The position numbers and the translations under genes are program-made. 64,000 bases of DNA, taken from assembly GCF_030028105.1 (NCBI RefSeq), contig NC_092386.1, forward strand, positions 17,291,258-17,355,257, in the 5' to 3' direction. Every line of letters starts with the position of its first letter. Within the stretch, counting starts at the first letter, position 1. Of the stretch, positions 198 through 56,240 are shown in pieces. Source of the stretch: Mobula birostris. Its lineage: Eukaryota. The notes below the pieces were generated by a model that ran no database searches, was not told where the DNA came from, and saw only the letters and a list, made by a program, of their open reading frames with translations.

Positions 198-326
198 TAC
201 AAACACAAAAGATTCTGCAAATGCTGAAAACCAAGAGTAACACACGAAAAATGTTTTTACTCCGGTCAGGCAGCTCTATGGAGAAGAATAAACAGTTGAC
301 ATTTTGGGCTGAGACCCTTCATCAGC
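198..326 (-). mobile_element. Penelope terminal-repeat fragment with degenerate hammerhead
   Basis: Reverse complement CTGATGAAGGGTCTCAGCCCAAAATGTCAACTG followed by the family-typical GCTGCCTGACC. Confidence 0.7.
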
Positions 327-732
327 AATTACAAAATTGCTTTGAATCATTGGATCTGAATGATTAAACCACGGCCATCACTGACTTCATTAAGACCTGA
401 GTGGGTAAGTGTGATGCCTTCTAGAACATTAAGCTTTATCAAACCAGAAACCCTGGATGAACCAGGTTTGTAGTGTGCTAAGGGCTCCATTTGTGGCATT
501 CAGGACCAGCAATTCAGAATCCTGCAAATCTAGGTACAGCCTATGGATGGCCACTGCGACAGCAAAAAGATACTTCTGTGTGAGAGACAACCCAATGCGT
601 GACAGCTGTGGCAAGGTGAGACCTAGCAGTATAAATGACAGCAATAATTCACTTCCTAATGAATGCTAATCCTTTTATACCCACTTTGAAAGGGAAGATA
701 AAACTATGCCTGCTCAAAGCCCCACAACATCT

Positions 733-970
733 GGCACAGTAGCTTTGTGGTCAGCACAATGCTTTCCAGTTCAGTGACCCATTGCTATCTGTAAGGAGTT
801 TGTACGGTCTCACTGTGACCACGTGAGTTTCCTCCCACAGTCCAAAGGTGTATAAATTGGTCACTGCAAATTGTCCTGTGATTGAGCTAGGATTAAAATT
901 GAGGGATTACCGGACAGCATGGCTCAAAGGGTCTGAAGGGTTTAGTCCATGCTGTATCTCAATAAATAAA
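733..970 (+). mobile_element. tRNA-derived V-SINE (HE1-like)
   Basis: Decayed tRNA head, V-domain-like GGAGTTTGTACG...TTTCCTCCCACAGTCCAAAG, and an AATAAATAAA tail. Related minus-strand copies at ~24175-24375 and ~56730-56870. Confidence 0.7.
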
Positions 971-3619
971 CCCTGTGATCTTTGTCTTGAAAGCTAATGT
1001 CAGAACATCTTTCAAGAGGACAAACCCTTGGAAGGTGTCTGGCGCCAAGGGGGTACCTGACCAGGTACTGAAAATCTGTGCTTACAAGATGGCTGGTGCA
1101 TTTGAGGACATCTTCAACCTCTCAGCTCTGTGGTCTGGGGTTCCCACCTATTTCAAAAGGGCAGCACAGACCAGTATCCTAAAAGCGCAGGGTGAACAAC
1201 CTAACAACCTCAATGACTACTGACTAACTGTCACATCTACCACAATGAAGCGCTTCAAGAGGTTGGTTATGGCTAGAATTAATGCCCACTTAAGGACTCA
1301 GACCTGCTGCTGCCAAAACACAACAGCAAACACAAGCTCACTAGCACTTAATTTTGCTGTGGACCACATAGACAAGTGCAATTTATTGATTACAGATCAG
1401 TGTTGGATACCAACATTCCCTCAGTACTAATCACCAAATTTCTAAACATGGGCCTCTGTAACTGGATCCTCGACTCCCTCATTGGGGGACCACAGTAGGT
1501 GTGCATCAGTGATAACATCTCTTCAACTGACAATCCACACAGGTAACACCATTGTTGGCAAAATCTCAGATGGCAACGAGGAGACATACAGGATTGAGAA
1601 TCTCAGCTGGTTAAGTGGTGTTGCAACAACAATCTTCCACTCAACATCAGCAAGACCAATAAAGACTTCAGGAAGAGAAGTTGAGAAAACATGATCAGTT
1701 GTGGAAAGGGTGAACAGCTTTAAATTCTTGGGTGCCCTGACACTCAACCTCATTAAGAGTTTGATGAGATTTGGTAAGCCACCAAACACTCTTGCAAATT
1801 TCTACAGATTTATGCTGGAGAGCATTTGTCCAATTGCATCTTAGCTTGGTATTAAGTCTCCAATGCACAGGATCGTAAGAGGCTGCAGAAGATTTCAGAC
1901 ACAGCCAGCTCCATCAATGGCACAATCCTATCCACTACTGAGGGCATCTTCAAGATGTTGTGAGTCAAGAAGGCAATATCCATCATTAAGGAAGCTCACC
2001 ATCTTGTGTTACCACTGCCTGGGAGTTCATAATCTGAGGACCCACACTCAATGATTCAGGAATAGCTTCTGCCCCTTCATACTTCTGAATAGTCCATGAA
2101 CGCATAAACACTACCTCATTATTCCTTACTTTTTACAATATATTTTGTAATTTATACTAATTTTACATCTTTGCATGGTACAGATGTTGCAACACAACAT
2201 TTTACATTACATAAGTGAGATAATAAACCTGATTCTTGATATTTTTAAATCTAGTCACATTACTGCTCCAGATAATTGAGCCTCAATACACAACAACCCA
2301 ACTTTTCACCACAAAACATTTGTGTCACAAACTTGAAGATGTTCCAGAAAAAGGAGACAGCCAAAGGGAGTTACAAAAAATCAGTTCTGGAGACCTTTCA
2401 CAGAGTCCACATGAAGAAAATGCTCCCACTTGATTTGCAATCCAAAGCTTGGTGCCAGAATTCACAATATTTATGTGACGCCTTAAGAGGAGTAAAATGT
2501 CCAAAAGTGCTTCACTTGAAAACTTTCAAATCAAATTAGTCATATAAAGAAACAAATGACAAAAGGCACAGTCAAATAAATGTGTTTTAATTCTCTCATC
2601 GAAGCAGAGAGGCAGACAAATGGAGGAGAGAGAGATTTTGGTGGCAAGGGACGGCGGGAGTTGGTTAGTTCCAGTTCAAGGCTGCCAGCAGTGGAGTTAA
2701 ATTCTACAATCAAGTGGCATGTGGAAATGGGAAGAGGTAAGGCCATGAAATAACTTAAAAAGGAGGATTAGAAATTATAAAATCAAGCTCCAACATAACC
2801 TCAGCAGGTAAGTGGAACATGGGAGCAGCGCAGAAGTTTGGATGTTAATTTCCTACAAGGCAGAATGAGAAAAACTAATCTGCAATTTGCTGGATCAGGC
2901 AAATACAAAAAGATTTATATAATCCTGCATGAGATTCCAGTAGCAGATCACCTGATGTGGAGTCTGGATGCACTGTTATAGAACTGTATAGCCTGACATA
3001 TAAGCTGAGATCACATACGAGGATGCAATGCAGAACTCCTAAAGTTCCAGAAAATGGAAATGGAATTATAGCTATGGAAGTGAGCTGGTGGGAATGACTT
3101 TGACCATCAAAATACTGAGTTGCAGGAACATTCTTCCACCCGTTATCATACACAAGACAAGACAAGCTGCAATTTATAGATACTCCAGACATCCAACAAA
3201 TTCAAAACCATTTTTATCCAGGGAATGGTATGAAACTTTGAATGTTCCAATGTGGAACTTTCCAACAAAAACTAATTGAGGTATATATGCTTTAAGAGGA
3301 ATCTAGATGATTGAGACAAAGACAACTACCCAAAGGGGTAGTTCATTAAGCATCAGCATCACGGGAGAACAGTTGTACAAAATCGCTTAATTCTGTACAG
3401 CAATTTCTTAATTTCAATAATTCTACTTGTTCACTGGTTCCAGTTATCCCCTATTTAGATCCTCAATCACTTTTGCATGTTATATGGTTAATCATATGCT
3501 GAAAGTAACACACAAAGAATGTTTTATACAATAGACAAGGGGTTGGAAGAGAAAATAAGGTAATTGTCACAGTTATGGTATCCACATTATAAAATAGGAC
3601 AATATTTGAAAAGCAAAAT

Positions 3620-3870
3620 GTTCTGGACTTAATCCTAAAAAAAATACACATGATGAAAAGAGAGACCAACTCCATCATCAATACAGTACTTCACTGGATC
3701 CCTGAATAACGGAGGAAATACAGGAAAGCTAGGAAACCCAAGACAACTTGGCGCTGTACCAAAGAGACAGAAATGAGGCTCCTGAACCACACCTGGCACA
3801 CAACAGAGAATATGGCTAAGGACAGGGAGATGGAGGACCTTCATTGCTGCCAGCAGCGTAACAGACAGTA
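3620..3870 (+). mobile_element. RTE-clade LINE 3' fragment
   Basis: Translates to ..VLHWIPE*RRKYRKARKPKTTWRCTKETEMRLLNHTWHTTENMAKDR, a typical RTE ORF C-terminus. Confidence 0.65.
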
Positions 3871-8222: not shown

Positions 8223-8450
8223 CCGGTGCGTCTGTTTTGTTCTCCTTCAGTGTTGCTGTCGTCTCGGGACCCTTGCCCCCTTCCGTTTTCTTCCCCCTTC
8301 CCTTTACTCGCGGGCACACAGACTTCTTTTTTCCTCTCTTCCTCTCTCTCTCTGTCCCTGCCCCCGCAGTTCGGCTGCCGACAGACAGTTTTATTTTGCG
8401 TTCACTATCGCCCTGCCGGCAGACACGGCCGCCATGACTCGCGTTCACAC
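8223..8450 (-). other. CHD1: CHD1 non-coding exon 1 (TSS approximate)
   Basis: Strong donor CGG|GTGAGA (GT at 8222-8221) inside the CpG island, a purine-rich leader and a YY1-like ATGGCGGC near the presumed start. The 5' end is estimated, not observed. Confidence 0.6.
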
Positions 8451-8520
8451 TTTGGGCCGGGAGTCGGACTCACTGCCGATGACGTCAGCCACACCCCGCG
8501 GGGGGGAGGAGGGGGAGAGC
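8428..8520. promoter_or_regulatory. Core promoter motifs: YY1-like, CRE, KLF/SP box, G-rich SP/MAZ tract
   Basis: GCCGCCATG 8428-8436; perfect CRE palindrome TGACGTCA 8480-8487; CCACACCC 8489-8496; G-rich tract ~8500-8519. Confidence 0.65.
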
Positions 8521-10801
8521 GGGACGCTTGACTGGAGAGTGGAGCATGACGGGAAGTTGGTTGACAGGCAGGCCAGGAGTCCCGAGCAGCGAGCGCAGCA
8601 TCTGACCGCTGGACGCGCAGTGCAGCGCAGGCATTTCAAATATGCAGGAGGTCCAAAGGAGGAAACCCCATCCGACCGATCCCAGCTCAAGCCCACGTCT
8701 GAATTCGTCCTCCGAATAGTGTACGGTGGAGTCGCTTTTAAGTAATGTGACTCAATGTCTGTGTGACACATTGAGACGCTGCTACAAGTTCTTCCGAATT
8801 CAAGGGTCAACCACTGAGTCAAAATCCGAATCTACGCTATCAGAGACGGGACTACTAAAATGAGCTCATTTAACACATGAGATACTGGAAATCCTGTTCA
8901 ACACGCACACAGAACGCCGGAGGAACTTTGTGTGTTGATCTACATTTAATACCGAATTTTGTGTATTGCCCAAATTGCTCTGGGGTGCCCTGTCAACTTC
9001 CTGTCCCATCTATTCAGGCTGAACCAAGATGCAAACCGTTTCTTGTAAACATCCTGCTTAATTCTTACCTAACCGTCATAAACCACAAACACAAGAAATT
9101 GTGCAGATGCTGAAAATCCAGAGTGACGCGCGAAATGCTGAGGAACTCAGCAGGGGTAGACAGCATCAGTTCTACAGAGATAAATAAAAGGTCGACGTTT
9201 TAAGTAGAGACCTTTCATCAGGGCTGGAAAGGAAGGGGGAAGAAGCCAGAATAAGAAAATGGGTGAGGGAAGGAGTACAAGCTGTAAAGTGATAGGTGAA
9301 ACCCGATGAGGGGGAAGGTGGTGGGTGGGGGAGGGAGGATGAGGTGAGAAACGAGGAGGTGATAGGTGGAAAGCGCTGAACGAGGAATGTGACAGGAGAG
9401 GAGAGTGGACCATCAGAATCAGGTTTATTATCACCGGCATGTGACGTGAAAGTTGTTAACTTAGCAGCAACAGTTCAATGCAATACATAATATGGAAGAA
9501 AAAAACTAATAATAAATATATAAATTAAAGTATACATATATAAAATAGATTTAAAAAGTGCAAAAAACAGAAATACTATATATTAAAATGTGAGATAGTA
9601 TCCAAGGGTTCAATGTCCATTTAGGAACTGGATGGCAGAAGGGAAGCTGTTCCTGAATTGTTGAGTGCGTGCCTCCAGGCTTCTGTACCTCCTACCTGAT
9701 GGTAACAGTGAGAAAAGGGCATGCACTGGGTGCTGGAGGTCCTAAATAATGGATGCTGCCTTTCTGAGACACTGTTCCCTGAAGATGTCCTGGGAACTTT
9801 GCAGGCTAGTACCCAAGATGGAGCTAACTAGATTTACAACCCCCTGCAGCTACTTTAGGTCCAGTGCAATAGCAACCCCCCTCCCCACAACTCCATACCA
9901 GACAGTGATGCAGCCTGTCAGAATGCTCTCCACAGTACATCTATAGAAGTTTTTGCGTGTATCTATTGACATGCCAAATCTCTCAAAACTCCTAATAAAG
10001 TATAGTGCTGTCTTGCCTTCTTTATAACTACATTGATATGTTGGGACCAGGTTAGATCCTCAGAGATCTTGACACCCAGAAACCTGAAGATGCTCACTCT
10101 CTCCACTTCTGATCCCTCCATGAGGATTGGTGTGTGTTCCTTGATCTTACCCTTCCTGGTACACAATCAGCTCTTTCGTCTTACTGACGTTGAGTACCAG
10201 ATTGTTGCTGCGGCATCACTCTACTAGTTGGCATATCTCACTCCTGTACACCCTCTCGTTACCACCTGAGATTCTACCAACAAGGGTTGTATTGTCAGCA
10301 AATGGTATTTGAGCAATGCCTAGCCACACAGTCATGTGCATATAGAGAATAGAGCAGTGGGTTAAGCACACACCCCTGAGGTGCGCCAGTATTGATAGTC
10401 AGTGAGAAGGATATGTTATCACCAATCTGCACAGACTGTGGTCTTCCGGTTAGTAAGTCAAGAATCCAATTGCAGAGAGAGGACCAGAGGCCCAGGATCT
10501 GCAACTTCTCAATCAGGATTGTGGGAATGATGGTATTAAATGCTGAGCTATGGTTGATGAACATCATCCTGACATGGGTGATTGTATAACCCAGGTGGTC
10601 TAAAGCCATGTGGAGAGCCACTGAGATTGTATCTGCTGTTGACCTATTGTGGCGATAGGCAAATTGCAATGGGTCCAGGTCCTTGCTGAGGCAGGAGATC
10701 AGTGTAGTCATGACCAACCTCACAAAGCATTTCATCACTGTCGATGTGAGTGCTATCAGGCGATAGTCATTAAGGCAGCCCACATTATTCTTCTTGGGCA
10801 C

Positions 10802-10938
10802 CCTCCCCCCACCCTCTTTATAGGGCCTCTGCCCTTCCCTCTTCAGTCCTGATGAAGGGTTCTGGCCTGAAACGTTGACTGATCGTCTCCACAGATGCTG
10901 CCTGACCTGCTGAGTTCCTCCAGCATGTTGTGACAGTT
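10802..10938 (+). mobile_element. Short Penelope terminal-repeat fragment inserted in the Rex1/Babar RT
   Basis: Near-identical to ~46975-47115. Flanked by GCAC (10798-10801, 10939-10942); removing it restores the LINE motif IIPV|PKK. Confidence 0.85.
10843..10882 (+). ncRNA. Minimal type I hammerhead ribozyme (intact core)
   Basis: TCAGTC-CTGATGA-AGG gttctgg CCT-GAAAC-GTT-GACTGA: 6-bp stem I, CUGAUGA box, 3-bp stem II, GAAA, palindromic AACGUU stem III, GUU cleavage triplet. Confidence 0.75.
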
Positions 10939-13019
10939 GCACTGGTATAATTGTTGCCTTTTTGAAGCAAGTGGGAACTTCTGCCCGTAGCAGTGAGAGG
11001 TTGAAAATGTCTTTGAATACTCCCGCTAGTTGGTTGGCACTGGTTTTCAGAGCCTTACCAGGTACTCCATCGGAACCGTCTGTCTTGCAAGGGTTCACTC
11101 TCTTTAAAGACAGCCTAACATCAGCCTCTGAGACAGGGATCACAGGATCGTCAGGTGCAGCAGGGATCTTCACAGCTGTAGTTAGGTTCTCCCTTTCAAT
11201 GTGGGCATAGAAGACGTTGAGTTCATCTGGTAGTGAAGCATTGCTACCATTCATGCTATTGGGTTTCGCTTTGTAGTAAGTAATGTCTTGCAAACCCTTC
11301 CAGAGTTGCCGTGCATCCGGTGTCACCTCCAACCTCATTCGAACTTGTCTCTTTGCCCTTGAAATAGCCCTCTGCAAATCATACCTGGTGTTTTGGTACA
11401 GGCCGGGGTCGCCAGACTTGAAGCCACAGCTCTAGCCTTCAGCAGACGACGTACTTCCTGGTTCACCCATGGCCTTTGGTTTGGGAATGTACAGTAAGTC
11501 TTTGTAGGCACACATTCATCCACACAGGTTTTAATGAAGTCAGTAACAACTGCAGCATTCTCATCCAGGTTCGAAGATGAATCCCTGAATACTGTCCAGT
11601 CCACTGATTCAAAGCAGTCCTGTAAGTGCTCCTGTGCTTCCCTTGTCCAAACCTTCTTGGTCCTTACAACTGGTGCTGCAGTCTTCAGTCTCTGCTTATA
11701 CTCAGGGAGTAGAAGTACAGCCAGGTGGTCAGACTTCCCGAAGTGAGGGTGTGGAATAGCGCAGTAGGCATTCTTGATGGTGGTGTAGCAACGATCCAGT
11801 GTGTTGTTTCCTCTGGTATTGCAAGTGATCTGTTGATGGTAATTGTTCAGTGGTTTTTTTTCAAACTGGCCCGGTAAAAATCCCCCAAAACGATGGTGAA
11901 GGCGTTAGGGTGCGCTGTTTCGTACATGTTGATCCCTTTGCTCAGATCATCTAAAGCCTGCTCACTAGATGAGAAAGGGAAGGTGGACCAGCACTAGAGG
12001 GATTGATAGGCAGGTGACCAGAAGAGAAAGGGTAAGAAGGGAGCCAGAATGGGGACTGGATAAAGGGAGAGGAGGATATACCAGAAGATGAAGAAATCAA
12101 TGTTCATGCTTCAGGCTGGAGACTACCCGAATGGAATAAGAGTTGTTGCTCCTTTAACCTGAGAATGGCCATGCCATGGCAGGAGAGAAGGCCATAGACC
12201 AACATGTTGGAATGGGAATAGGGAGTTCCTCTGCTTAGATGCTGCCTGACCTACTGAGTTGCCTCAGCATTTTGTATGCTACTTCATAAACTCTAAAAAG
12301 TTAATTACTAAATTATCTCTATTTGGTGAAAAGAATGCTGAGTACCTATGCGTCTAACTTTTTTATCCTGGTTTACTCCTTGTCTTTAGAATGGTGGCAC
12401 GTTTAATGAAATGCATTCACACTCTTTGGATAACTCCTGGCTTAGAGAAGAAGGGAAGACAAAGAGGGAACATTAGGCCTAAAGGCTGACAATGAAATTG
12501 AATAGCAAATGTTAGTGGTTAGATTTCCCCCTGGAAATATTCATCATTTGGCTACTGTGTGCATGAATATTGTCACACATCAGCCCACGCTTAAATATCA
12601 TTTATTGCCACATGGAAAAATGGGTTGCTCATTTGCTGAGGACATGACCTTGTGCTTGGTAGATAGCTTTGGAGTGTCTTTGTGAATCATCGTTTACTGA
12701 TGAGATATGAATGGAATTGAACCTTGTACAGTCACCAGCCAGCATTCCCATGCCTGAACTTGCCATGCAAGGAAAGATCACTTATGAAGCAGCTGAGGAT
12801 ACTTAGGATACTGTCCTGAGAAACTCCTCCAGGGAAATCCATCGCTAAGATGTTTGACCTCCAAAAATTGTGGCTTAGTTCCTTTGTCCAAGCATTGGAC
12901 TATTTTCCCTCTGATTTTAGTTTTACTCAGGCTTATGGATGGCACACTTGGTCAAATACTGCCTTGATGCCAAAATCGGTCAATCTCACCTCTGTCTTTG
13001 AATTCAGTTCCTTCTTCCA

Positions 13020-14695: not shown

Positions 14696-15089
14696 TACAG
14701 CTTCCAGGGATTAACTGCAGTGTTTTGTTCCAGCATCATTTTTATTTTAATTCTCATTCTTCTCCCTTTCTTTACATCTCCTTTAGAATGATCTGTGATT
14801 AGCAAAATTTTACCAGACCCCTGAAGCTGACATCACCACCACCTATGCCATTGTCGCTATTGATCTCCACCCTATTACAGACATTTCCTTCATTCTTTCG
14901 TCTCTGCAACTTTTAATTGATAACTTTTTCTTGATCATATGAAATGTTACTGACCTGAAATATTAATTCTGTTTCCCTCTTCATAGATGCTGCCTGACCT
15001 GCTGAGTATTTCCAGCATTTTCGAAGTGAAGAAGTCTGCTGCCGGTGTTAGTTAATCACCAGGGATGGTCTGAAAGCAGCTGAAGCCAA

Positions 15090-15335: not shown

Positions 15336-16619
15336 AAATGCCAATCTCGGTACGTTAGCCTAAATTGGTAATGCCAAATTCTCATGATGCTGGCGTTGTG
15401 GCAGAAGTCTTCTGTTTATGTCCTTGTTTTTGAACCAGGATTAGGCTAATGTTGGGACCGAAGGCCCTAAAAGTGGGGGGGGGGGGGGGGAGAAAAGGGT
15501 CTGACAAATAAATAATAAAGGGATATAGAAGGGTCTGGGCATGAAATGTCAAGCGACTATTTATTCCTCTCCATAGATACTGCCTGACCTGCTGAGTTCC
15601 TCCAACACTTTGTATGCGTCACTCTGGATTTCTGGCATATGAAGAATTTTTTTGTGTTTATAAATTAGAGGGAATCTATCTGTGCTAGGTTTGCAGAACC
15701 CGTTCAAGATCTGGTCAGGAGGGAGAATTCCTTAAAATTGTACCACTACCAGTTAAGCAGCACTATTCAAAATCTAGCTTGGATGGCAATCTTAGATTGC
15801 AAGAAATTGATCCAAAGTGCAGGCTGCTTTCTCCCTGCAACACTCTAAATGAGTGATATAGAAGGAATAACATCCTTTTGTGTTCATCTGACACGGAAAA
15901 TGAATCATCTGTGCATGTAGGAATAGTGGCAGAGAGTACTCTGTGATTAATGGAGTGATGTCGTTTAAAATTTTAAAACAGACCTTCTGCCAGCATTTTC
16001 CTCCTGTTCTCAGTAGTATTTGAAGACGGCCATCGGATTGAACTGTGTGCAGAAGATGCCCCCAGGAAGCTGCTTTGAAGTGGTTTGATATAATTTGAGT
16101 CGATATAAAGTTACTTTGAAAGGCAGCTACGAATCAAGAATGCTAGTGAGGAACTGGAAGCACTTACAGGCCACACCAGGTAAAATGACCTAAAGTAAGT
16201 TCTTCTGATTATTTACAAAAATCATCCAGATTACATGGGCTTTGTTAAAAAGTGCAGGCCAGAGTGCAAATACTGTGTGCTTGAATGTGCCTGAACATTG
16301 GTAATTGACCTCAAGCTTATATGTGTACTCATGACCAGGTCTTCCAAGAGAGAGATGCAGGGTCAGAGACTACACATGCACAACTGACACAGGAGTGGCA
16401 AATGCAGTCACCTGAGTCTAGCCTGCAGCCTGAAATGTCTCAAGGTCAGCTCTCAGGATATCTAGATCGCCATTGCTAAAGTTCATGAGAGAAACTGCTA
16501 GGTTTTAGCATCAGTGCGAATGATGTTGGTTTCTTTTACAAAGGCCCAAGCTGTTAACAATTTACATCAATGATTTGAAAGAGGAGTGCAAGTGTAGTAT
16601 ATCATCATTACCTGATTAC

Positions 16620-18455: not shown

Positions 18456-18819
18456 TTAACCACGTGACAATGACAAACAAATACTAATCTCAATTTCTGG
18501 ATGCAGTGAGATGGTCAGTGTTTCAGGCTGAGGCTATGTATCAGGGCTGAGGGTAAAAAATGGCAATACCCAGGAAAAGAAGTGAGTTCAGCTTCTCTTT
18601 CTACAGAGGCAGCCTAACCTGCTATGTATTTCCAGCATTTTCTGTCACTACTGGGAATATTTTAACCTGTAATACTGCAGTGCCTCTTTATTCATTCCAA
18701 GCTGCTGACTCATCCCCTTCATGCTATAAAGCCATAATATATATGAGCATCATTTAGACCATTGAGTTTGCTCTATAACTCAGTCTTTACTGCAATTGTC
18801 CACTCTTTGGCCATCTCCC

Positions 18820-23744: not shown

Positions 23745-24160
23745 CACAAACAAGAGAAAATCTGCAGATGCTGGAAATCAAACTAATACACATGAAATGC
23801 TGGAGGAACTCAGCAGGCCAGGCAGCATCTATGGAAAACAGTAAACAGTCGATGTTTTGGGCCAAGAACCTTCATCGTGATCAGAAAAAAGGATTAGGAG
23901 GAAGAGTAAGAAGGTGGGGGAGGAGAGGAAGAAGTACAAGGTAGTAAGCGATAGGTGAAACTGGGAAAGGAGAACTGTGAAGTAAATGGCTGGAAAGTTG
24001 ATCGGTGAAAGAGGGAAAGGGCTGGTGAAAGGGGAATCTGAAAGGACAGGACAGAAGGCCATGGAAGAAAGGGAAGGGAGAGGAGCACCAGAGGGAGGTG
24101 TTGGGCAATTAAGGAGAGAAGGTGCGAAGGGGAAATGGGAATAGTGAAGGAGAAGGGCCC
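23745..24160 (-). mobile_element. Penelope terminal repeat with degenerate hammerhead
   Basis: Matches the 3' region of the Penelope copies; reverse complement ..CGATGAAGGTTCTTGGCCCAAAACATCGACTG. Confidence 0.8.
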
Positions 24161-33134: not shown

Positions 33135-33530
33135 CAGACCCCAACCTGATGGCATGAACATCCATTTCTCTAACTTCCTGTTATAAAAGGTGGGATTTCC
33201 TAGTGGCCACCTATTTCACTTCAACTTCCCATTCCAACATGTTGGTCCATGACCTCCTCTGCTGCCACCATGAGGTCACACTCAGATTGGAGGAGCAACA
33301 GTCCATATTCTGTCTGGATAGCCTCCAACCTGATGGCATGAATATTGATTTCTCTAACTTCAGGTATTTCTCTTCCCTCCCCCTACTCTCTTTTTTCACT
33401 CCCCATTCTGGTCCCTTCTCTTGTCCTCCCATGCCCATCACCTCCCTCCGATGCCTATCCTCCTTCCCTTTGTCCCATGATCCACTGTCCTCTCCTATCA
33501 GATTCCTTCCCCTTCAGCCCTTTACCATTA
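33135..33530 (+). mobile_element. Penelope GIY-YIG C-terminal fragment
   Basis: ORF 33203 (ATYFTSTSHS..LRLEEQQSIFCLDSLQPDGMNIDFSNFR). Confidence 0.75.
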
Positions 33531-33779: not shown

Positions 33780-34500
33780 CAATAGCCTGTCCTGGTCGAA
33801 CCATGTTAATGTCACAGTCAAGAAAGCTCACCAATGCTTCGACTTTCTCAGGAATCTAAAGAAATTCGGCATGCCCCGCTCTTACTAATTTTTATCAATG
33901 CTCCATAGAAAGCATTCTGTCTGGACGCCTAACGGCTCGGCGTAGTAACTGCTCGGCACACGACCGCAAGAAACTGCAGAGTGTTAATGACTGCAGCTCA
34001 GCACATCACAGGAACCAGCCTCCTCTCTATGGACTCAGTCTATACGCTCGCCGTCTCAGCCAGCTTAGTGAAAACACAACCACCTCGATCGACGTTATCT
34101 CTTCTCATCTCTCCCTTCAGGGAAAAAATACAAAGGCCTGAAAGCACGGACCACCAGGCTCAAGGATAGCTTCTATCCTACTGTTATCGGACTCTTGAAC
34201 AGCCCTCTTGTACAATAAAGACAGCAAGCCAGGCAGTATCTATCGAAAAGAGTAAACAGTCAAAGTTTCTGGCCGAGAAACGAAGGGGCTCGGCCCGAAA
34301 CGTCCACAGATGCTGCCTGGCCTGCTGAGTTCCTCCAGCATTTTGTGCGTATCGCTTGGATTTCCAGCATCTTGTGTTTGTGTTCTTGTACGATAAGATG
34401 GACTCTTGGTCTTACTACTTACCTAGTATTATGATCTGGCACTTTATTATTTACCTGCATTGCACTTTTTTCGGTAGTTTTTACATTCGTAATTATTATT
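33780..34500 (+). mobile_element. Rex1/Babar 3' fragment containing a fold-back Penelope-derived insert (34219-34383)
   Basis: The insert has head-to-head terminal-repeat halves flanked by TCTTGTAC(A/G)ATAA at 34206-34218 and 34384-34396. Confidence 0.75.
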
Positions 34501-37089: not shown

Positions 37090-37499
37090 TATTTTAAAAA
37101 AATCAGATGACGTTGCCTGGCGTCTCAGGTCTGGGTGCGTCTGCAGATGCGCTACACTTCACCCCTTCTCGGCCTCCTGTCCCACACGGCGCACCACCCT
37201 GGACATTCCCAACTTCCTTCGCTCCCGCCACATTTACAAACTCGTTCTCCGCTCCTGGTTGACAAGCAGTCCTGTGCAAAAGTCTTAGGCGTTCTAGATT
37301 TCTATATATATATATGTCCCTAAGACTTTTGCACAGTACTGTATTACAACATGCCAAAGTTGGAAAATTACCTGGATTGACACATGCGCAGCACATGCAT
37401 TGTAGTCGTGTCTGGCCGGAAATGTTCCACGGTAAAACAATCAGTGACATCATCAAAAGGACACAATTTGAATAATTTAATGCAACAGTTTCAATTGCA

Positions 37500-37875
37500 A
37501 CAAGACACACAAATTGCTGGAGGAACTCAGCAGGTCGGACAGCATCTATGGAGGGGAATAATCAGCAGCTGTTTAGGGCTCAGACGCTTTATCTAGCCTT
37601 GACGTCTTCCAGCTGTCACTTCCCAGCTTCTTATGTAGTCCCCACTTCATCATCCCCACTTTACCCCTCACCAGTTTCACCAATCAGCTACAGACGTGTA
37701 TTCCTTACCTTCCCCCTTTCCTATTCTGGCTTCTGCCCCCTTCTTGTCCTGTTCTGATGGCCCAAAACATCAACAGTTTATTCCTCTCCAAAGATGCTGC
37801 AACATTTGCATATTTCCTCCACCATTTTGTGTTTGCTCATCAAGATGTCCAGCATCTACAGAATCTCATGTGCTT
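37500..37875. mobile_element. Old fold-back pair of Penelope terminal repeats
   Basis: Minus-strand half (37500-37595) joined to a plus-strand half (37600-37875). Confidence 0.65.
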
Positions 37876-38697
37876 ACGATTTTCAGTTGTAGTTTTTTAA
37901 AATCATTTGCCTCTTTCTTCTACTGTGGCATCAAGTTAGTGCTATAATATATTTCAAATACGATATTAAAATGCCTTGCCTAGAATGCTTCCAATTAAAC
38001 TCTCTTCATTATGTTTATTGTGTTTTTCCCCGCAGATGCTGACTGACCTTCTAGGTATTTTCTTGTTCTCTTTAAGTTCATGTGTTACATTTTCTCTACT
38101 CATTTTAACGGAAAAAGTAGACTTGAGTAACAAGCAGGGAACTCTAGTTTATAAGAAAAGTATTGAAAGGGGGAAATAAATCTCTCCAAAATTATTCACT
38201 TTTTAAAGTGACTACAACCATAGAAATAATGTCAAGTGTAATTTGGTGTTAACATTCTTGGCCCCACATCAGCTAGTTTGGATTCTAAAGTACACAATTT
38301 AAAATAACTTCCAGAGCAATAGTACAGTGATGCTGCTCTTATTTAACTTTGCTGTTTTTTCTTCAACTAGTGCTTAAGAATAGATACTGCACCTCAAAAA
38401 CACATTTTTGGTGTGAGGTGGGGAAGGTTTTATGTAATTACAGTTATTTTATATACACTTCGATTAAGTTTTCTGAAATGTGAATAACTGTAAAATACTA
38501 ACATGGAGACTAGTCGGCTTATGCATTTAACGTAATTGTTGTTGTCTTGTTTTGTCCCTTATTACAAAGGTTTGGAATTTGTTTTGAAAGTTTCCAGTGT
38601 ACTTCCATACTCTGAATGAACTGTAATCACTTATCCTGATCGTTTCTGTTAAAGATTTATTTGCATTCCAAAATAAATTATGCATATCAATATGACA

Positions 38698-43097: not shown

Positions 43098-43329
43098 GAT
43101 CAAAGTAGCTGGTGAACGCAGCAGGACAGGCAGCATCTCTAGGAAGAGGTGCAGTCGAGGTTTCATGCTGAGACCCTTAGTCAGGACTAACTGAAGTCCT
43201 GACGAAGGGTCTCGGCCTGAAACGTCGACTGTACCTCTTCCTAGAGATGCTGCCTGGCCTGCTGCGTTCACCAGCTACTTTGATGTGTGTTGCTTGAATT
43301 TCCAGCATCTGCGGAATTCCTGTTGTTTG
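43098..43329. mobile_element. 232-bp fold-back Penelope-derived element
   Basis: 90-bp inverted arms (43099-43188 / 43195-43284) with a 6-nt spacer; perfect 10-bp TSD CGAGGCAGTG (43088-97, 43330-39). Confidence 0.9.
43195..43230 (+). ncRNA. Minimal type I hammerhead ribozyme (intact core, GUC triplet)
   Basis: AGTC-CTGACGA-AGG gtctcgg CCT-GAAAC-GTC-GACT. Confidence 0.8.
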
Positions 43330-45020: not shown

Positions 45021-45357
45021 TTTGATATTGTAGGTTGAGGAATACGTATTGGCATGACATTTAGGGATCTTCCTTATTTTCGGTCCATATTTCCTTATGA
45101 CATAGAGGAGGCTATGCAGTCCATTGACTGACTAACAGAACAACCCAATTCTCCAAGTAATATTCCCTATGACCTCATCTCCCTAAACCTCATCAACTTG
45201 CTCAGATGGTACTTATTACCCATTAGGGCCAATTAAGAGTAGCTATTAAACCTTCCTAATTTATTGTATAGAGTGTTTAATGTCAACTGAGTAAGTCAGT
45301 CATATGGCATCCCTCCAGAAATACTCTGTCAGCGTTTTTCAACTCAATGTATTCCAA

Positions 45358-45406
45358 TGTATCCCTGATGAAGATGACAGAGTTTGTCATCGAAACATCA
45401 GTTATA
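45358..45406 (+). ncRNA. Second-family minimal hammerhead ribozyme (partly decayed)
   Basis: TGTATCC-CTGATGA-A-GATGACA gagtt TGTCATC-GAAAC-ATC-AGTTATA: perfect 7-bp stem II; ATC/AGTT explained as CpG decay of GTC/GGTT. Confidence 0.7.
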
Positions 45407-45408
45407 AT

Positions 45409-47149
45409 TAAGGCCTCAAAGCATGTCCAATCCCTATGCACCTCCACTCTCCATCAAGAAGGCCTCAAAGCCCTCCGCTACTTTCTGGATAATAGACCTC
45501 ACCAGTTCCCCACCACCACTACCCTCCTCTGTTTGGTGGAACTGGTTCTCACACTCAATAACTTCTCTTTTGGCTCTTCCCACTTTCTTCAGACTAAGGG
45601 TGTGGCTATGGGAACTCGTATGGGCCCCAGCTATGCCCGCCTCTTCGTTGGTTATGTGGAATAGTCTGTGCTCCAAACCTATTCTGGTACTGCTCCCCAA
45701 CTTTTCCTTCGCTACATTGACAACTATATTGGTGCTGCTTCCTGCACCCATGCTGAGCTCGTCAATTTCATCGACTTTACTTCAAACTTCCACCCAGCCC
45801 TCAACTTCACTTGGTCTTTCTTGGACACTTCTCTCCCCTTTCTCGATGCCTCGGTCTCCATCTCTGGAGACAGACTGTCAACTGACATCTTCTACAAGCC
45901 CACTGACTCTCATAACTACCTCAACTATACCTCTTCCCACCCCGCCACATGCAAAAATGCCATTCCCTATTCCCAGTTCCTCCGCCTCTGCTGCATCTGC
46001 TCCCAGGATGAGGCTTTCCGTTCCAGGACATCTCAAATGTCCTCTTTCTTTAAGGATCGTGGTTTCCCTTCTACCGTCATCAATGATGCCCTCACCCGCA
46101 TCTCCTCCATTTCCCGCACTTCAGCCCTCACCCCATCCTCCCGTCACCGCAACAGGGACAGAGTTCCCCTTGTCCTCACCTACCACCCCACCAGCCTCCA
46201 GATCCAACACATTATCCTCTGCAACTTCCGCCACCTTCAACAGGACCCCACCACTAAGCACATCTTTCCCTCTCCACCCTTCTCCACTTTCTGCAGGGAT
46301 CGTTCCCTCCGCGACTCCCTGGTCCACATGTCCATCCCCACGGATCTCCCACCCGGCACTTATCCCTGTAAGCATAAGTGCTACACCTGTCCCTACACCT
46401 CCTCTCTTGCCTCCCTTCAGGTCCCCAAACAGTCCTTCCAGGTGAGGCAACACTTCACTTGTGAGTCTGTTGGGGTCATCTATTGCATCCAGTGCTCCCA
46501 GTGCGGCCTCCTCTACATCGGTGAAACCTGACGCAGATTGGGGGATCACTTCGTCAAGCACCTCCGCTCCGTCCGTCACAACAAACAGTATCTCCCGGTT
46601 GCCACGCACTTCAACTCTGCTTCCCATTCCCATTCGGATATGTCCATACATGGCCTCCTCTACTGCCATGATGAGGCTAAACTCAGGTTGGAGGAGCAAC
46701 ACCTCATATACCATCTAGGTAGTCTCCAGCCCCTTGGTATGAACATAGAATTCTCCAACTTCTGGTAATTTCCTCCCCCTCCCTTCCCCTATCCCTATTT
46801 CACTCTGCCCCCTCCCCCAGCTGCCTATCACTTCCCTCATGTTTCCACCTCCTTCTACTACCCATTGTGTTTCCCCTATTCCTTCTTCACCTTTCCTGCC
46901 TATCCCCTTCCTTACCCCTTTATCTTTCCCCTTACTGGTTTTTCATCTGGAACCTACCAACCTTCTCCTTCCCACCCTCCCCCCACCTTCTTTATAGGGC
47001 CTCTGCCCCTTCCCTCTACAGTCCTGACGAAGGGTTCCGGCCTGAAACATTGACTCATCGTTTCCACGGATGCTGCCTGACCTGCTGAGTTCCTCCAGCG
47101 TGTTGTGAGTGTTGCTTTGACCCCAGCATCTGCAGAGTATTTTGTGTTT
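45409..47149 (+). mobile_element. Penelope-like element (Neptune-type), 5'-truncated, RT + GIY-YIG + terminal repeat
   Basis: One frame broken by stops: GVAMGTRMGPSYA, RYIDN, YKPTD, PCKHKCYTCP, VIYCIQCSQCGLLYIGET, HFNS..QPLGMNIEF. Hammerhead at 47020-47055 (AUU). TSD AGTTATAAT (45400-08, 47150-58). Confidence 0.95.
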
Positions 47150-48309
47150 AGTTATAATCGATACTTGTACCTTGCTGGAAGCCCAAGTAAAGTCTATTTA
47201 TCAATGTATTCCATATTAGAAGGAATCTGTCTTCTCATTCATTTACAGATCAAAGCCTACTTGCTGAGGTGTGCCTCAGATTTTTCGGTCACTGAGGGGC
47301 TTTTCCTGCCTGCGGCAATGTCCTCCTCTTGGTACTCAGCTTGGTACTTGGAAACTCCCTGAGAGAGTTCTCCCTTTGTTCTCCAGTGAGGTACTTTTCC
47401 AGTAGTCTCTCCCCACATCCCTACAAACACAACGTGAAGCACCTTCCCTACTTCTGTGCTCTTCCGATCAGTTTATCAAGCTGTCAGTTTCTCACAGTGG
47501 TCCTCTCTCAACTCCACAATTCTTGTCTTCAAAAAATAGTTGATATCATGAATTAACATCTGGTGTATACTCATACTAGTACACTCAAGCTATTCAATTT
47601 CCTTCTACAACAATTCATGTTCTATCACTGAGTGGTGCCGGAGGATGATACATTTCCAATATCCTTAAATTTTGATATTATTTACTGACCAATGGAAACA
47701 ATATATGGGTTACAAAACCCTGACTTATGGCCACTCAAACAGATGAATGAGCTCCCATAATATTATTAAACTCAGAAGTCCTCTGTATTGTATGTGCAAA
47801 TGTTTCTTCCTAAGACATCAGATTTAGCTTTCTCTCCACTTTTAGTAAACGTTTTTTTTTCTTATCAGTCTTCTATGTTTTTGATGCCATTCCTTACAGT
47901 ATTGTTCAATATGTTTAACATGTCTAGCAACTTTTGTGTACTTTCCGACATGGACAAAATCATGTCTGGTAACACAGAATCCGTTTATTACCCAGGAATG
48001 GTTTATATCACTTTTTATTTCATAATGCTTTGTAATATGCCCTGTACTGCTTAAAAAAAAAGAACTAAAATGTGAAACATCATGGGAAACAAGTCTTAGT
48101 ACTTCTTAGGAGTGAACATTTATCTTCATTACACCTTGTAGTATGACTTGTCCATCAGGAGTACATCAGGAAGTTACTTCACGGGTTAGATCCTTTGCTC
48201 TGATGATTCTTTTCAACATTATTGAACATTGTAAGACTTTTGCAATTACTTTCTAAGCCTCTCACCTACCTTGGCGGGATGAGCAATCATTTATAACGTT
48301 TCGAACATC

Positions 48310-49496: not shown

Positions 49497-51590
49497 CAAC
49501 ACACAAAAAAATTGCTGGTGAACGCAGCAGGCCAGGCAGCGTCTATAGGAAGAGGTACAGTTGACGTCTTGGGTCGGGATCCTTCGTCAGGACTAACTGA
49601 AAGAAGAGATAGTAAGAGATTTGAAAGTAGGAGGGGGAGATCCAAAATGATAGGAGAAGACAGGAGGGGAGGGGTGGATCTAAGAGCTGGAAAGTTGGTT
49701 GGCAAAAGGAATACCAGGCTGGAGAAGGGAGAGGATCATTGGACGGAAAGCCTGGGGAGAAAGAGAAGTGGGGAGGGGAGCCCGGAGGGTGGAGAGCAGG
49801 CAAGGAGTTATAGTGAGAGGGATAGAGGGAGAAAAAAGAGAGAGAGAGAAAAAAAGGGGGGAATTAAATAAATATATAAGGGATGGGGTGTGAAGGGGAG
49901 GAGGTGCATTAACAGAAGTTAGAGAAAGCAATATTCATGCTATCAGGTTGGAGGCTACCCAGACGGAATATAAGGTGTTGTTCCTCCAACCTGAGTGTGG
50001 CTTTACCTTTACAGTAGAGGAGGCCGTGGATAGACAGATCAAAATGGGAATGGAACATGGAATTAAAATATGTGGCCACTGGGAGATCTTGCTTTCTCTG
50101 GCGGACAGAGCATAGGTGTTCAGCAAAGCGGTCTCCCAGTCTGTGTCAGGTCTCGCCAATATATAAAAGGCCACATTGGGAGCACCGGATGCAGTATATC
50201 ACCCCAGTTGACTCACAGGTGAAGTGTTGCCTCATCTGGAAGGACTGTCTGGGGCCCTGAATGGTGGTGAGGGAGGACGTGTAAGGGCATGTGTAGCACT
50301 TGCTCCGCTTACAAGGAAAAGTGCCGGGAGGGAAGGGATGGGGGGGGTGACGAATGGACAAGGGAGTCGCGTAGGGAGTGATCCTGCGGAAAGCAGAAAG
50401 CGGGGGGGAGGGAAAGATGTGGTTAGTGGTGGGATCCCATTGGAGGTGGCGGAAGTTACGGAGAATTATATGTTGGACCCGGAGGCTGGTGGGGTGGTAG
50501 GTGAGGACAAGGGGAACCCTATTCCTAGTGGGGTGGCGGGAGTATGGGGTGAGAGTAGATGTGCGTGAAATGGGAGAGGTGCGTTTGAGAGCAGAGTTGA
50601 TGGTGGAGGAAGGGAAGCCTCTTTCTTTAAAAAAGGAAGACATCTCCTTTGTCCTGGAATGAAAAGCCTCATCCTGAGAGCAGATGCAGCAGAGATGGAG
50701 GAATTGTGAGAAGGGGATGGCATTTTTGCAAGAGACAGGGTAGGAAGAGGAATAGTCCAGGTAGCTGTGAGAGTCCGTAGGCTTTTTGTAAACATCAGTA
50801 GATAAGCTGTCTCCAGAGGTAGAGACAGGAAGATCTAGAAAGGGGAGGGAGGTGTCGGAAATGGACCAGGTAAACTTGAGGGCAGGGTGAAAGTTGGAGG
50901 CAAAATTAATGAAGTCAATGAGCTCAGCATGCGTGCAGGAAGCAGCGCCAATGCAGTCGTCAGTGTAGCGAAGGAAAAGTGGGGGACAGATACCAGAATA
51001 GGTTTGGAACATGGATTGTTCCACAAAGCCAACGAAAAGGCAGGCATGGCTGGGACCCATATGGGCGCCCATGGCTACACCTTTAGTTTGAAGGAAGTGG
51101 GAGGAGCCAAAGGAGAAATTATTAAGAGAAAGGACTAATTCCGCTAGATGGAGGAGAGTAGTGGTAGAGCGGAACTGGTTAGGTCTGGAATCCAAAAAGA
51201 AGTGGAAAGCTTTGAGACCTTCCTGGTGGGGGATGGAGGTATATAGGGACTGAACATCCATGGTGAAAATAAAGTGGTGGGGCCCAGGAAACTTAAAATC
51301 ATTGAAAGGATTCAGAGCGTGAGAAGTGTCACGAACATAGGTGGGAAGGGATTGAACAAGGGGGGATAAAACCATGTCGAAGTATGCAGAAATGAGTTCG
51401 GTGGGGCAGGAGCAAGCTGAGACAATAGGTCGGCCAGGACAGGTAGGTTTGTGGATCTTGGGTAGGAGGTAGAAACGGGAAGTGCGGGGTGTGGGAACTA
51501 TAATGTTGGTAGCAGTGGATGGGAGATCCCCTGAGCGGATAAAGTTGGTGATGGTGTGGGAGACAATGGCCTGGTGCTCCTTAGTAGGGT
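49497..51590 (-). mobile_element. Penelope-like element (Neptune-type), longest copy; nested in a Rex1/Babar 3'UTR that sits in a Tc1-like element (49046-52210)
   Basis: ORF 50146-51672 (element-derived from ~51590): FYLLPKIHKP..GRPIVS, MDVQSLYTSIP, GVAMG, RYTDD, Cys linker, VIYC..LYIGET. Terminal repeat with mutated hammerhead at 49557-49594. Confidence 0.95.
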
Positions 51591-52229
51591 TTCCTCGTGT
51601 GTGCGTTTTTAATATATATGGAGACAACGTTTCTCCGAACCAGGGTGTAAAGAACAGTAATACACATAACACACAATAACTTATGGAGGTAAGGATAACA
51701 CCTACAGATGAATTAACACATAAATAACAGCCTAATGTGTTTGTACATTATTATTAACTATTGTAAGGTACGAAGCAGATTAGCCAGTGACACTTCGAAT
51801 ATGATGATGTTGGGAGTTCAGAGGCCTAATGGCCTGAGGGAAGAAAGTGTTTCTCATCCTGACTCTTCTTGTTTTTATGCATCATAGTCTTCTGCCTGAT
51901 GGTAGAAAGTCAAAGAAGATTCTGGATGGATGGGTGGGATCCTTAATAATACTAAGGACCCTATGTACACAGCGCTCCTGCTGAATGTCCCCAATGGATG
52001 GTAGGGAGTCCCCTGTGATCTTCTCAGCTGTTCTCAGTCCTTTGTAGGGATTTCTGGTCCAATGCTCGTTTCTTTCTCATTCTGATGTTTGCTCTGAACA
52101 ACAAAACCCTTTGACCAAGTCTGTGCGCTTTTATGCGTTGAGTAGCTGCCACATGATTGGCTGATTTGCATCAACAAGCATGTGTACCTAATAAAGTGGT
52201 CATTGAGTGAATATTGGAGCCATGTAAGA

Positions 52230-52970
52230 TATTGTTTAATCACACCTCAGACTAATGTGCGCAGTCCCAGTCACTACACTGTTGAAAGATCATGGAAGCA
52301 CTAGAGAGGATACAGAAGACATTCATCCGTGTTTGCTTGGAGTGGATGACTTTAGTTACAGGAAGAGATTGGCTAGGCTGGAATTGTTCTCACTGAACAC
52401 ACAAGGCTGACGCGTGACCTTGTTGAAGTCTATAAAGTTAATGGAGACCATAGACAAGGCGGATACTCATAAACAGAAGAGATTTTGCAGTTGCTGGAGA
52501 TCCAGAGTAACACACGCAAAATGGTGGAGGAACTCAGCAGCTCAGGCAGCATCAACAAAGAGAAATAAACAGTTGACATTTTGGGTGAGACCCTTCATCA
52601 GGACAGGAAAGGAAGAGGGAAGACACTGCCTCACCTGCCGAGTTCCTCAAGCATTTTGTGAGTGTAACTCTATTCAAAGTTCAAAGTTTTTACAAAGTTA
52701 CAGCAATCTAAAACTAGAGGAGAGGGGAATATAGGGTGAGAGGAGAAGCATTTAACGGTGATCTGAAGGAATTTCTTTTCTCACAGAGGGTAATATGGAA
52801 CCAGAGGAGGTGGTAGAAGCAGGTATAACCACTACATTTAAAAAGCATTTGGACAGTTACATAGAGAGGAAAAGAACAGAGAGAAACGGGGTAAATGCGG
52901 GAAAAAGGAATTAGTGTCTCAGCTGGCTTGGATGAATTGGGCCGAAGAGCCTGTTTCTGTGCTGTATGAT
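52230..52970 (+). mobile_element. CR1 3' fragment with a fold-back Penelope insert (~52470-52672)
   Basis: CR1 RT C-term and 3'UTR on both sides; the insert matches the terminal-repeat family. Confidence 0.7.
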
Positions 52971-53544
52971 GCTGTGGTATGGCTCACTTTCCAATCTCCC
53001 TATTACTTGCTTATCCTCATTATCTCCTCAGCTTTATCTTCTCACAGACATCCATCTCCCCTAACCTCTCAGTGGCTCACTTATCTCCTTTTCAGCTCTG
53101 ATTAGGGATCTCTGGCCCAAAACGTTGACTATGATTCCAAGAAAAACTAGGTAAAGTGCCTTAATGAGTACCTTAAGGTGGCTCTGGCATCCACCTTCAT
53201 GAAGCGCTGGTCATGACCCATACTAACTCCAGCCTTCCAGACAACTCGAACTCCAACTACAATTCACCCTCTGCTTGTTTTTTTCTGTTGTCGCAACTGC
53301 TTGTGCTGTTTCGCTGAACAACGTGGGCACACTTGCGTTAGTGCTGGAACGTGCGGCGCCACTTGCAAGCAACCCCCAGCACATTCTCGGATGTGTTGGT
53401 TATTAACGCAAATAACGCATTTCACTGTATGTTTTGATGTACATGTGATAAATAAATCTGAATCTCCATTGGGATCTGAAACCGGCCCATGGTAGATGCC
53501 ATTTCCCCGACCCTATAATCACCTCTGAAATATCTGGACAATAA

Positions 53545-55090: not shown

Positions 55091-55587
55091 AAATTTATCA
55101 ATTTACCAATCTATTTCACTTTCTATAGATGCACCTTGACCTACATTTTCTTTTATTTTGTTTTGGAAAGACTGCTGAAGTCTACGCCCAGTGTATTTTC
55201 CAAAGTGGAGAAGAAGTGTGAAGTATCTGTCATATCAGATGTTCAGCAAATAATATTTTCCAATATCCAGCATGGTAGAGTAGTAGAAAAAACCTGCTGA
55301 GTTCCTCCAGAATTTTGTGTGTATTACCTTTAAAGTAATTTTACAGACACTAAGATATGATATGATATGACAGATTCTTCACACTTCTCCACTTTGGAAC
55401 ATACACTGGGCTTGGACTTCAGCAGTCTTCCTAAAACAAAAAAAAGAAAATGTAAGTCAGGGTGCATCAATAGAAAGTGAAATAGATTGGTGAATTGATA
55501 CATTTGCTTATTATTGTGAAAAACTTGTCTTGCATGCCATCCATTTAAAGGTACGGCAGTTAATTTTTTCCAATACTCAGTATGGTA

Positions 55588-55881
55588 GTAGAGGCATCTG
55601 TTAGTCTTGCGAGACCATGTCTTCACTCTCCAGGGCACAGGCCTGGGCAAGGTTGTATGGAAGACCGGCAGTTGCCCATGCTACAAGTCTCTCCTCTCCA
55701 CGACACCGATGTTGTCCAAGGGAAGGGCATTAGGACCCATACAGCTTGGCACCAGTGTCGTCGCAGAGCAATGTGTGATTAAGTGCCTTGCTCAAGGACA
55801 CAACACGTTGCCTTGGCTGGGGCTCAAACTCATGACCTTCAGGTCACTAGTCCAATGCCTTAACCACTTGGCCATGTGCCC
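55588..55881 (-). mobile_element. Full-length tRNA-derived SINE
   Basis: A box TGGCCAAGTGG, B box GTTTGAGCCC, core GTGTCCTTGAGCAAGGCACTTAA; 13-bp TSD ACTCAGTATGGTA (55575-87, 55882-94). Confidence 0.85.
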
Positions 55882-56097
55882 ACTCAGTATGGTACAGCAG
55901 TAGTAAAAACAAGCTGTTCCTACAGCGTTATGTGTGTATTACCATCAATGTACTTTTACAGACACTAAGCATTAACAGTTGTTATTTGTTTTATTTATTC
56001 TTATGAGGGGGACCTCCTCATTATCTTCTTATTCATAAATGGTTGAATATGCAATATATATACAAAATCTTTAAGCTCGATAGGTACACTATAGCAC

Positions 56098-56240
56098 TTG
56101 AGTCCTGATGAAGGGTCTCTGCCTGAAATGTCCTCTGTTTATTCCTCTTCATAGATGCTGCCTGACCTGCTGAGTTTTTCCAGCATTTTGTGTGTGTTGC
56201 TCTGCAGTTCCTGCATCTGCAGAAACTCTTGGGTTCACTT
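56098..56240 (+). mobile_element. Penelope terminal-repeat fragment with near-intact hammerhead core
   Basis: AGTC-CTGATGA-AGG gtctctg CCT-GAAAT-GTC-ctct (stem I damaged). Confidence 0.75.

Follow-up and report, generated by a model that had tools for sequence, protein, structure and literature searches.

A dispersed hammerhead module in Mobula birostris is probably the 3′ end of truncated Neptune-type Penelope-like elements

The stretch of ray DNA analyzed here (Mobula birostris, RefSeq assembly GCF_030028105.1, contig NC_092386.1; 64,000 nucleotides, hereafter the window) is eukaryotic sequence of ~42% G+C in which retroelement fragments are abundant, among them three long copies of a Penelope-like element (PLE) and many copies of a short repeat, or module, in which a hammerhead ribozyme motif precedes a recognizable sequence tag. 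Motif and BLAST scans delimited 23 arms of this module, 19 with hammerhead sequence and four with the tag only; with each of six head-to-head pairs merged into one, these correspond to 17 insertions. An arm was recognizable, on the strand given, at all 18 positions named in an initial annotation made from the letters alone, those at 14935 and 18525 being very degenerate. Five arms were additional to that list, namely a hammerhead-bearing arm at 37570 (minus strand) and tag-only arms at 12238, 18600, 52625 and 55292, and so was the hammerhead of an unrelated family (family E) at 45365. A strict descriptor of the minimal hammerhead gave two matches (10849 and 43199) vs 0 in each of 100 dinucleotide shuffles, and a relaxed descriptor gave five vs a shuffle mean of 0.07 and a maximum of 1 in 100 shuffles, so that the motif is not a product of chance. 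The module was indeed the most frequent short repeat among the families probed with 11 seeds (21 matches), ahead of the best fragment of a long interspersed nuclear element (LINE; 14 matches) and a palindromic miniature inverted-repeat transposable element (MITE; 12 strand-hits).

The host element can be read from the three long copies (A, B and C). All are 5′-truncated, with open reading frames (ORFs) broken by stops or frameshifts; they align to an 889-residue relative from its residues 442, 331 and 494, respectively, through its end, and lack the first 330-490 residues by comparison with it. YCI..LYIGET motifs are present in their translations, and in all three a CX3-4CxxC linker precedes the GIY-YIG region; a CX2-5CxxC linker has been described for Neptune and Nematis elements and not for Penelope or Poseidon (Craig et al., bioRxiv 2021.04.23.441226). 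The RVT_1 match was weak in a long copy; PF00078 and PF26215 occur in its homologues, some of which also have PF01541. For the ORF at 50146-51693 the best protein relatives came from Mobula and Hypanus (73-87% identity), with sharks next. The host thus appears to be an endonuclease-bearing (EN+) PLE of the Neptune/Nematis type, as assigned from motifs and not from a tree of reference elements. The distance from stop to hammerhead core is 256, 319 and 262 nt in copies A, B and C, in line with the ~250-350 nt past the GIY-YIG stop noted initially. The module had also been called a terminal repeat; its position at the 3′ end is borne out, and the repeat is visible at that end only, because all three long copies are 5′-truncated. 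As a separate observation, splice-acceptor-like sites (a pyrimidine tract plus YAG) abut helix I at 47005-47023 and 30347-30365, and a second acceptor-like site lies directly before an ATG in the tag (47069, 56154 and others).

Majority states over the 19 hammerhead-bearing arms describe helix I (5 bp), CUGANGA, one additional A, helix II (4 bp, with tetraloop), GAAAC and GUC. At all core columns the majority state conforms to the conserved boxes CUGANGA and GAAAN-NUH, and the extra base that separates positions 9 and 10.1 is A in 16 arms. The stem II register first proposed, with an A-U pair at its base, was replaced by G10.1-C11.1 plus this extra A. A canonical hammerhead of the retrozyme type, with helix III and loop-loop contacts, was likewise considered and rejected: the motif is minimal, and a match to the Rfam hammerhead family is absent. 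The dinucleotide at 11.1-12 reads TG in eight arms, CA in seven, CG in one and otherwise in three, a pattern of CpG decay that makes C11.1 the ancestral base and G10.1-C11.1 the ancestral pair. In contigs of runs X1, X5 and X9, C at 11.1 accounts for 55, 52 and 63% of contig depth and G at 16.2 for 72, 72 and 69%, figures drawn from 40 of 186 variant rows. The palindrome at 15.2-16.2, which has no loop III, reads CG in seven arms, TG in four and CA in five. The TG/CA pattern recurs at four CpGs of the module. The initial annotation is supported in placing at the 3′ terminus of PLEs a minimal hammerhead whose ACGU stem III has no loop. Its 'intact' cores at 10843 and 43195 were overstated, because both carry U at 11.1 through CpG decay, which is at best a tolerated G-U wobble. 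G12, the catalytic base in hammerhead numbering, is lost in 9 of the 19 arms. All 11 invariant core bases are kept in four, two of which (10843 and 43195) also keep ACGU, and the full motif (11 invariant bases, ACGU and C11.1) is found in none. With G12 in a decaying CpG and a same-strand partner absent for every copy in the window, the copies in the genome are probably dead. For 12 window copies, RNAalifold returned a single 4-bp hairpin and no covariation, as expected for neutrally decaying copies. The identification of a ribozyme, judged from sequence, is right in kind: the motif likely cut RNA in the active element and is mutated in nearly every copy in the window.

Relatives of the PLE protein were encoded at 80 metagenome loci, 31 of which extend to the end of the ORF and ≥400 nt beyond it. 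Among these 31 invertebrate loci, a same-strand hammerhead was located 98-159 nt past the ORF match in 7 with the strict and 12 with the relaxed descriptor, whereas antisense and ORF-interior controls each gave 0/31; this positional enrichment (12/31 vs 0/31) is independent of selection bias. At locus L004, helix I, helix II and the loop are identical to those of the Acropora digitifera Neptune hammerhead (PMC4209133, supplement). In a comparison of four ray with six invertebrate motifs, the two boxes had identities of 0.90 and 0.84 vs 0.29 and 0.27 for the 30-nt flanks. Over a set of 18 sequences, two-sided changes occurred in 7/9 helix I/II pairs with a covariation score reached by 0/500 shuffles; of these pairs, the two innermost of helix I, 2.1-1.1 and its neighbor, had eight such changes each. 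Both tests are biased upward by motifs preselected for boxes and pairing. The possibility that the core is no more conserved than its flanks, raised when the motif was first noted, did not hold. DNA-pattern scans of viral contigs and of metagenome contigs gave 0 matches, and a protein scan of viral contigs found no relatives of the PLE protein. We also observed an inverted hammerhead copy 5′ of the ORF match at L004 and L008, minimal hammerheads upstream of or within the ORF match (L009:323, L011:2868 and L038:2083), and a longer palindrome as helix III at L038.

Conservation of this kind bears on another reading of the motif, in which its hammerhead shape serves chiefly to bind protein or direct folding and cleavage in vivo is slight or absent. 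The ray consensus is predicted to prefer a rod that buries the core: helix I and helix II formed with probabilities of 0.93 and 1.0 in folding of the majority sequence, the core paired with the GUC strand in an inactive structure 2.2 kcal/mol more stable than the alternative (-13.3 vs -11.1 kcal/mol), and the ACGU duplex was worth only -1.7 kcal/mol. In the model, such behavior suits a motif dependent on a partner or on protein. The initial statement that such hammerheads cleave as dimers must be qualified, since activity in published work is low or protein-assisted: metazoan minimal hammerheads had no monomer and low dimer activity (PMC4209133), 8/9 Xenopus dimer elements did not cleave (10.64898/2026.07.22.740005), and in the Anolis element PAc cleavage needed protein and was dispensable for insertion, with no RNA-seq reads ending at the site (PMC11167929). 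A role as a mere signal is nonetheless unlikely in our assessment, as rays and invertebrates, whose flanks are no more alike than at random, share the catalytic boxes, the NUH site and compensatory pairing in stem I, in keeping with what selection for a catalytic fold predicts.

The limits of the arms, given with C3 as position 0 and with several 5′ positions set by eye, carry information on how the copies arose. The 3′ ends fall at +124 to +131 in 11 of the 23 arms, at +75 to +95 in nine and elsewhere in three, so that there are two discrete 3′ ends ~35 nt apart. All adjacent arms are inverted; the six head-to-head pairs always run minus then plus, and in five of them exactly one arm is long, with a tail of ~35 nt. 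Duplications flank four of the six pairs, two of them measuring 13 bp with one mismatch, a value reached in 0/150 random trials. For 7 of the 18 insertions examined the target-duplication search found nothing, and at 296, 18525/18600, copy C and 37570/37750 it found background-level repeats only. The 5′ ends vary between +56 and about -2000. Sequence upstream of the module in short copies is collinear with the long copies, and short arms fall within the long-copy subfamilies, the arm at 10843 being 92% identical to A and that at 43195 being 86% identical to B.

The anatomy of the module, its two 3′ ends, the head-to-head pairs with target duplications and the CpG decay, all directly visible in the window, are best explained if the repeat is the 3′ end (stop, pyrimidine-rich untranslated region (UTR), minimal type-I hammerhead motif and tail) of Neptune-type PLEs, and if the short copies are likely 5′-truncated and inverted insertions and not a separate element; we put the probability of this reading at roughly 0.8. 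From published PLE biochemistry, the element protein likely nicks both target strands. Reverse transcription of an uncleaved RNA template would begin at two sites that lie 90-130 nt past the hammerhead, each insertion, however short, would copy the module first, and priming from both strands would produce a head-to-head pair of arms of which one is tailed. The excess of the module over the ORF would also be explained if priming takes place just downstream of the hammerhead. The six head-to-head pairs and their one-sided tail match the layout of PLE insertions described by Craig et al. (bioRxiv 2021.04.23.441226), which have an inverted 5′-truncated copy and a 30-40-bp tail on one end, and they match two-strand, two-site priming, a PLE protein having been found to cut and extend both strands from two internal, tail-bounding sites with uncleaved RNA (PMC11167929). 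The hammerhead itself is modeled as closed in the monomer; to cut after GUC in tandem element RNA, it would need to form a dimer or to have help from protein.

Several observations weigh against this reading. The window contains no full-length copy with two direct pseudo-long terminal repeats (pseudo-LTRs) around a full ORF, the missing Rfam hammerhead match extends to a threshold of E<=5, and the type of the host comes from motifs. The duplications at the other two pairs are weak, with scores of 7-8 where scores of >=7 occurred in 33/150 random pairs. Even the relaxed scan left 19/31 invertebrate loci without a motif in the 400 nt that follow the ORF, and the covariation test used related sequences and invertebrate rows picked by a descriptor that demands pairing. 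Lastly, nine arms out of 23 have their start in the interval from -22 to +14 relative to the core, with p 0.02 nominally and 0.15 after correction for the scan; they belong to families B and C, which contig depth did not resolve, and the clustering leaves room for a preferred short form in these families.

One way to obtain such starts is that many short arms are solo pseudo-LTR copies, made by reverse transcription from the upstream initiation site of a tandem transcript to a defined RNA 5′ end, which would be a splice acceptor at stem I or a start of transcription. This idea is compatible with an origin as Neptune-type 3′ ends, yet it predicts a sharp 5′ boundary. Besides the nine clustered starts, it can draw on internal initiation just downstream of the hammerhead, seen in vitro with the Anolis PLE (PMC11167929), on the pyrimidine tract ending in CAG that abuts stem I in families A and C, and on the Drosophila virilis Penelope intron that ends at helix I (PMC4209133). 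Once corrected for the scan, however, the clustering is not significant, the arms starting at stem I share no common upstream exon, the AG at stem I is absent in invertebrate relatives such as L004, and in the contig-only depth data there is no site where many molecules begin or end; we therefore hold solo pseudo-LTR formation to be an improbable source of many short arms.

Less probable still is that the short copies form a separate non-autonomous family, retrozyme-like or resembling short interspersed nuclear elements (SINEs), that borrows the PLE protein, possibly via hammerhead-cut circular RNA. Most arms are indeed <300 nt, nine of the 23 begin near the 5′ edge of the core, family E is a ~95-nt unit that also begins at stem I, and retrozymes derived from pseudo-LTRs are reported in vertebrates including one chondrichthyan (10.64898/2026.07.22.740005). 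Retrozymes, though, are tandem repeats, mostly with canonical type-I hammerheads (PMC7229834; 10.64898/2026.07.22.740005), and TRF found no array of period >15 nt in the window; as retrozymes are tandem by definition, the label fails here. The 'short retrozyme-like non-autonomous units' of the initial annotation also find no support in the heterogeneous 5′ ends, the collinearity with long copies and the placement of short arms within long-copy subfamilies. No arm starts at the cleavage site, and in family A contig depth has no step at the 5′ edge of the hammerhead (1.07 million just upstream vs 0.83-1.18 million inside). Truncated and inverted 3′ ends of Neptune-type elements remain the preferred account.

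The abundance of these ends was gauged by comparing contigs of runs X1 and X5 with 46341-47240 at 80% likeness and summing word depth. In X1 the depth was 5.6 million in the tag, 0.83-1.18 million in the family-A hammerhead and 0.51-0.68 million in the UTR, against 14.5 in unique flank; in X5 it was 8.7 million vs 15.7 in unique flank. The ratios to flank, ~4-6 x 10^5 and 6-8 x 10^4, hint at orders of magnitude and are not copy numbers, with one bin as their denominator. Depth in the endonuclease ORF reached 2.7 million, so long copies are not rare. Contig depth thus hints that decayed copies number around 10^5 per genome, a figure not to be taken as an actual count. The very large hammerhead complement proposed at the outset is plausible on this rough contig depth and has precedent in published counts for coelacanth and Xenopus (~4,000 and ~9,000 minimal motifs; PMC4209133) and axolotl (126,247 canonical motifs; PMC7229834), but the copies are mostly decayed and probably not working, and module counts overstate working ribozymes because G12 lies in a decaying CpG. 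We regard as speculative the larger proposal that ray genomes hold several hundred thousand hammerhead-derived PLE ends, 10^4-10^5 of them with intact cores, the largest minimal-hammerhead complement reported. On that proposal, the head-to-head insertions, in which a single arm is tailed and 5′ junctions are enriched within the ribozyme, would document two-strand internal priming in vivo on the scale of a genome, with the hammerhead setting the cDNA end.

The features of the window are collected in Table 1. Triple nesting is seen at 9085-12291, where a head-to-head PLE insertion is split by a ~2.6-kb LINE that itself holds the 10788-10940 copy. In the forward arm at 34279, a deletion of ~17-20 nt (34295-34312) begins at the position of hammerhead cleavage, for which a short microhomology might account.

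Table 1. Copies and arms of the module, related PLE sequence and family E, with positions in the window
Positions	Strand	Feature	Remarks
197..328	-	Solo short copy, start at core	G12 mutated
9085..9407	-	3′ part of long inverted arm, hammerhead near 9190	G12 mutated
10788..10940	+	Short family-A copy within LINE, short 3′ end	Hammerhead 10843-10882 (strict-descriptor match) with GUU site and decayed C11.1
11971..12226	-	Upstream part (endonuclease end and UTR) of the LINE-split 9190 arm
12228..12283	+	Tag-only forward arm, partner of 9190 arm	9190/12238 pair: 8-10-bp duplication, about 9076-9083 and 12284-12291
14924..15028	+	Old, very degenerate copy, divergent subfamily	Limits approximate
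15528..15660	+	Solo short copy, start within core
18490..18565	-	Old degenerate hammerhead arm	Limits approximate
18587..18645	+	Old tag-only arm, head-to-head with 18525 arm
23746..24155	-	Copy with almost complete 3′ UTR	Core mutated
30215..31749	-	Long PLE copy C, long tail	Stop ends 30608; C3 at 30346; A6 and G12 mutated
33130..33530	+	PLE fragment, endonuclease end and UTR	Partial duplication; module absent
34219..34278	-	Inverted arm, start in stem II	Pair 34219..34383 flanked by 13-bp duplication, 1 mismatch
34279..34383	+	Forward arm, start in core	Sole arm with CG at 11.1-12
37498..37602	-	Degenerate inverted arm, short 3′ end
37607..37880	+	Forward arm, ~150 nt UTR, core deletion, long tail	Weak 9-bp duplication
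43101..43195	-	Inverted arm of 43195 insertion, tail absent	Pair 43101..43329: 13-bp duplication (1 mismatch), 43088-43100 and 43330-43342
43195..43329	+	Forward arm of head-to-head insertion, long tail	Best-preserved hammerhead, 43195-43230; C11.1 to U
45357..45408	+	Family E, 5′ half	C3 at 45365; stem II at least 6 bp; interrupted by copy A
45410..47149	+	Long PLE copy A, reverse transcriptase to GIY-YIG, broken ORF, 5′-truncated, long tail	Stop ends 46768; C3 at 47024; 9-bp target duplication
47150..47200	+	Family E, 3′ half	13-bp exact target duplication of family E, 45344-45356 and 47201-47213
49497..51609	-	Long PLE copy B, short 3′ end	Stop ends 49909; C3 at 49590; G12 and A14 mutated; 14-bp exact target duplication
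52470..52620	-	Inverted arm, long tail	G12 mutated
52621..52670	+	Tag-only forward arm, short 3′ end	Duplication not found
52960..53135	+	Degenerate copy with UTR, ends just past hammerhead	Limits by eye
55292..55330	+	Tag-only remnant
56101..56235	+	Solo short copy, start at stem I	Core intact; stem I and palindrome broken

Family E is an insertion unrelated to the module that has a minimal hammerhead of its own and begins 8 nt before the core; the window has no ORF linking it to a PLE. PLEs tend to insert into or beside existing PLEs (PMC6765202). The target duplication of copy A, which interrupts family E, begins at the base right after the family-E cleavage triplet, a single case that may be chance. 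Elsewhere, a palindromic MITE-like repeat of ~65 nt lies at 19795-19861, 20680, 22150-22216, 43390-43456, 44977, 49046 and 52183; its sub-threshold Rfam matches to mir-9256 (best E 0.009) suggest, at the level of sequence, that this microRNA family may resemble a transposon. The stretch at 7775-8750 is G+C-rich and CpG-island-like with long open frames, one of which was checked and had no Pfam match; it is possibly a gene promoter. Positions 40548-40683 are an assembly gap of 136 N.

The ray module closely resembles the minimal hammerheads of PLE pseudo-LTRs described by Cervera and De la Pena in 2014 (PMC4209133), with which it shares the CUGANGA core, the extra nucleotide between 9 and 10.1, G10.1-C11.1, a loopless palindromic helix III, a short helix I and a U-rich 5′ flank; there, too, solo copies from truncated elements predominate and close opposite-strand pairs occur. 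It differs in a helix II of 4 bp, compared with 7-8 bp in the schistosome motifs, and in an apparent order of 10^5 decayed copies compared with 4,000 and 9,000 descriptor hits, measures that are not comparable; chondrichthyans are absent from the examined portions of that paper's supplementary alignment and table. The Anolis Poseidon element PAc (Frangieh et al., 2024; PMC11167929) likewise has a pseudo-LTR hammerhead with two 3′ ends a tail length apart downstream of it and acts on both target strands, paralleled in the ray by the two 3′-end classes and the head-to-head pairs. PAc belongs to the Poseidon clade, whereas the ray element is Neptune-type, and the PAc ORF starts inside the hammerhead. 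Metazoan non-LTR retrozymes are also short type-I-hammerhead repeats related to PLE pseudo-LTRs, but they are same-strand tandem units of 150-450 nt with canonical hammerheads and circular RNAs (PMC7229834; 10.64898/2026.07.22.740005); the ray copies are dispersed or inverted and of minimal type, have varying 5′ ends and adjoin an ORF for reverse transcriptase and endonuclease. A literature search, with subscription papers mostly outside its coverage, found no paper on hammerheads in ray PLEs.

This kind of system has been known since 2014, and the ray copies are a further member of it. A specialist would not be surprised by them, and their value is that of a resource. A vertebrate lineage that is apparently insertion-rich offers a test, from sequence only, of a priming model that has so far been shown mainly in vitro with one lizard element, and it also makes it possible to look for selection, within introns, against intact hammerheads in the sense orientation.

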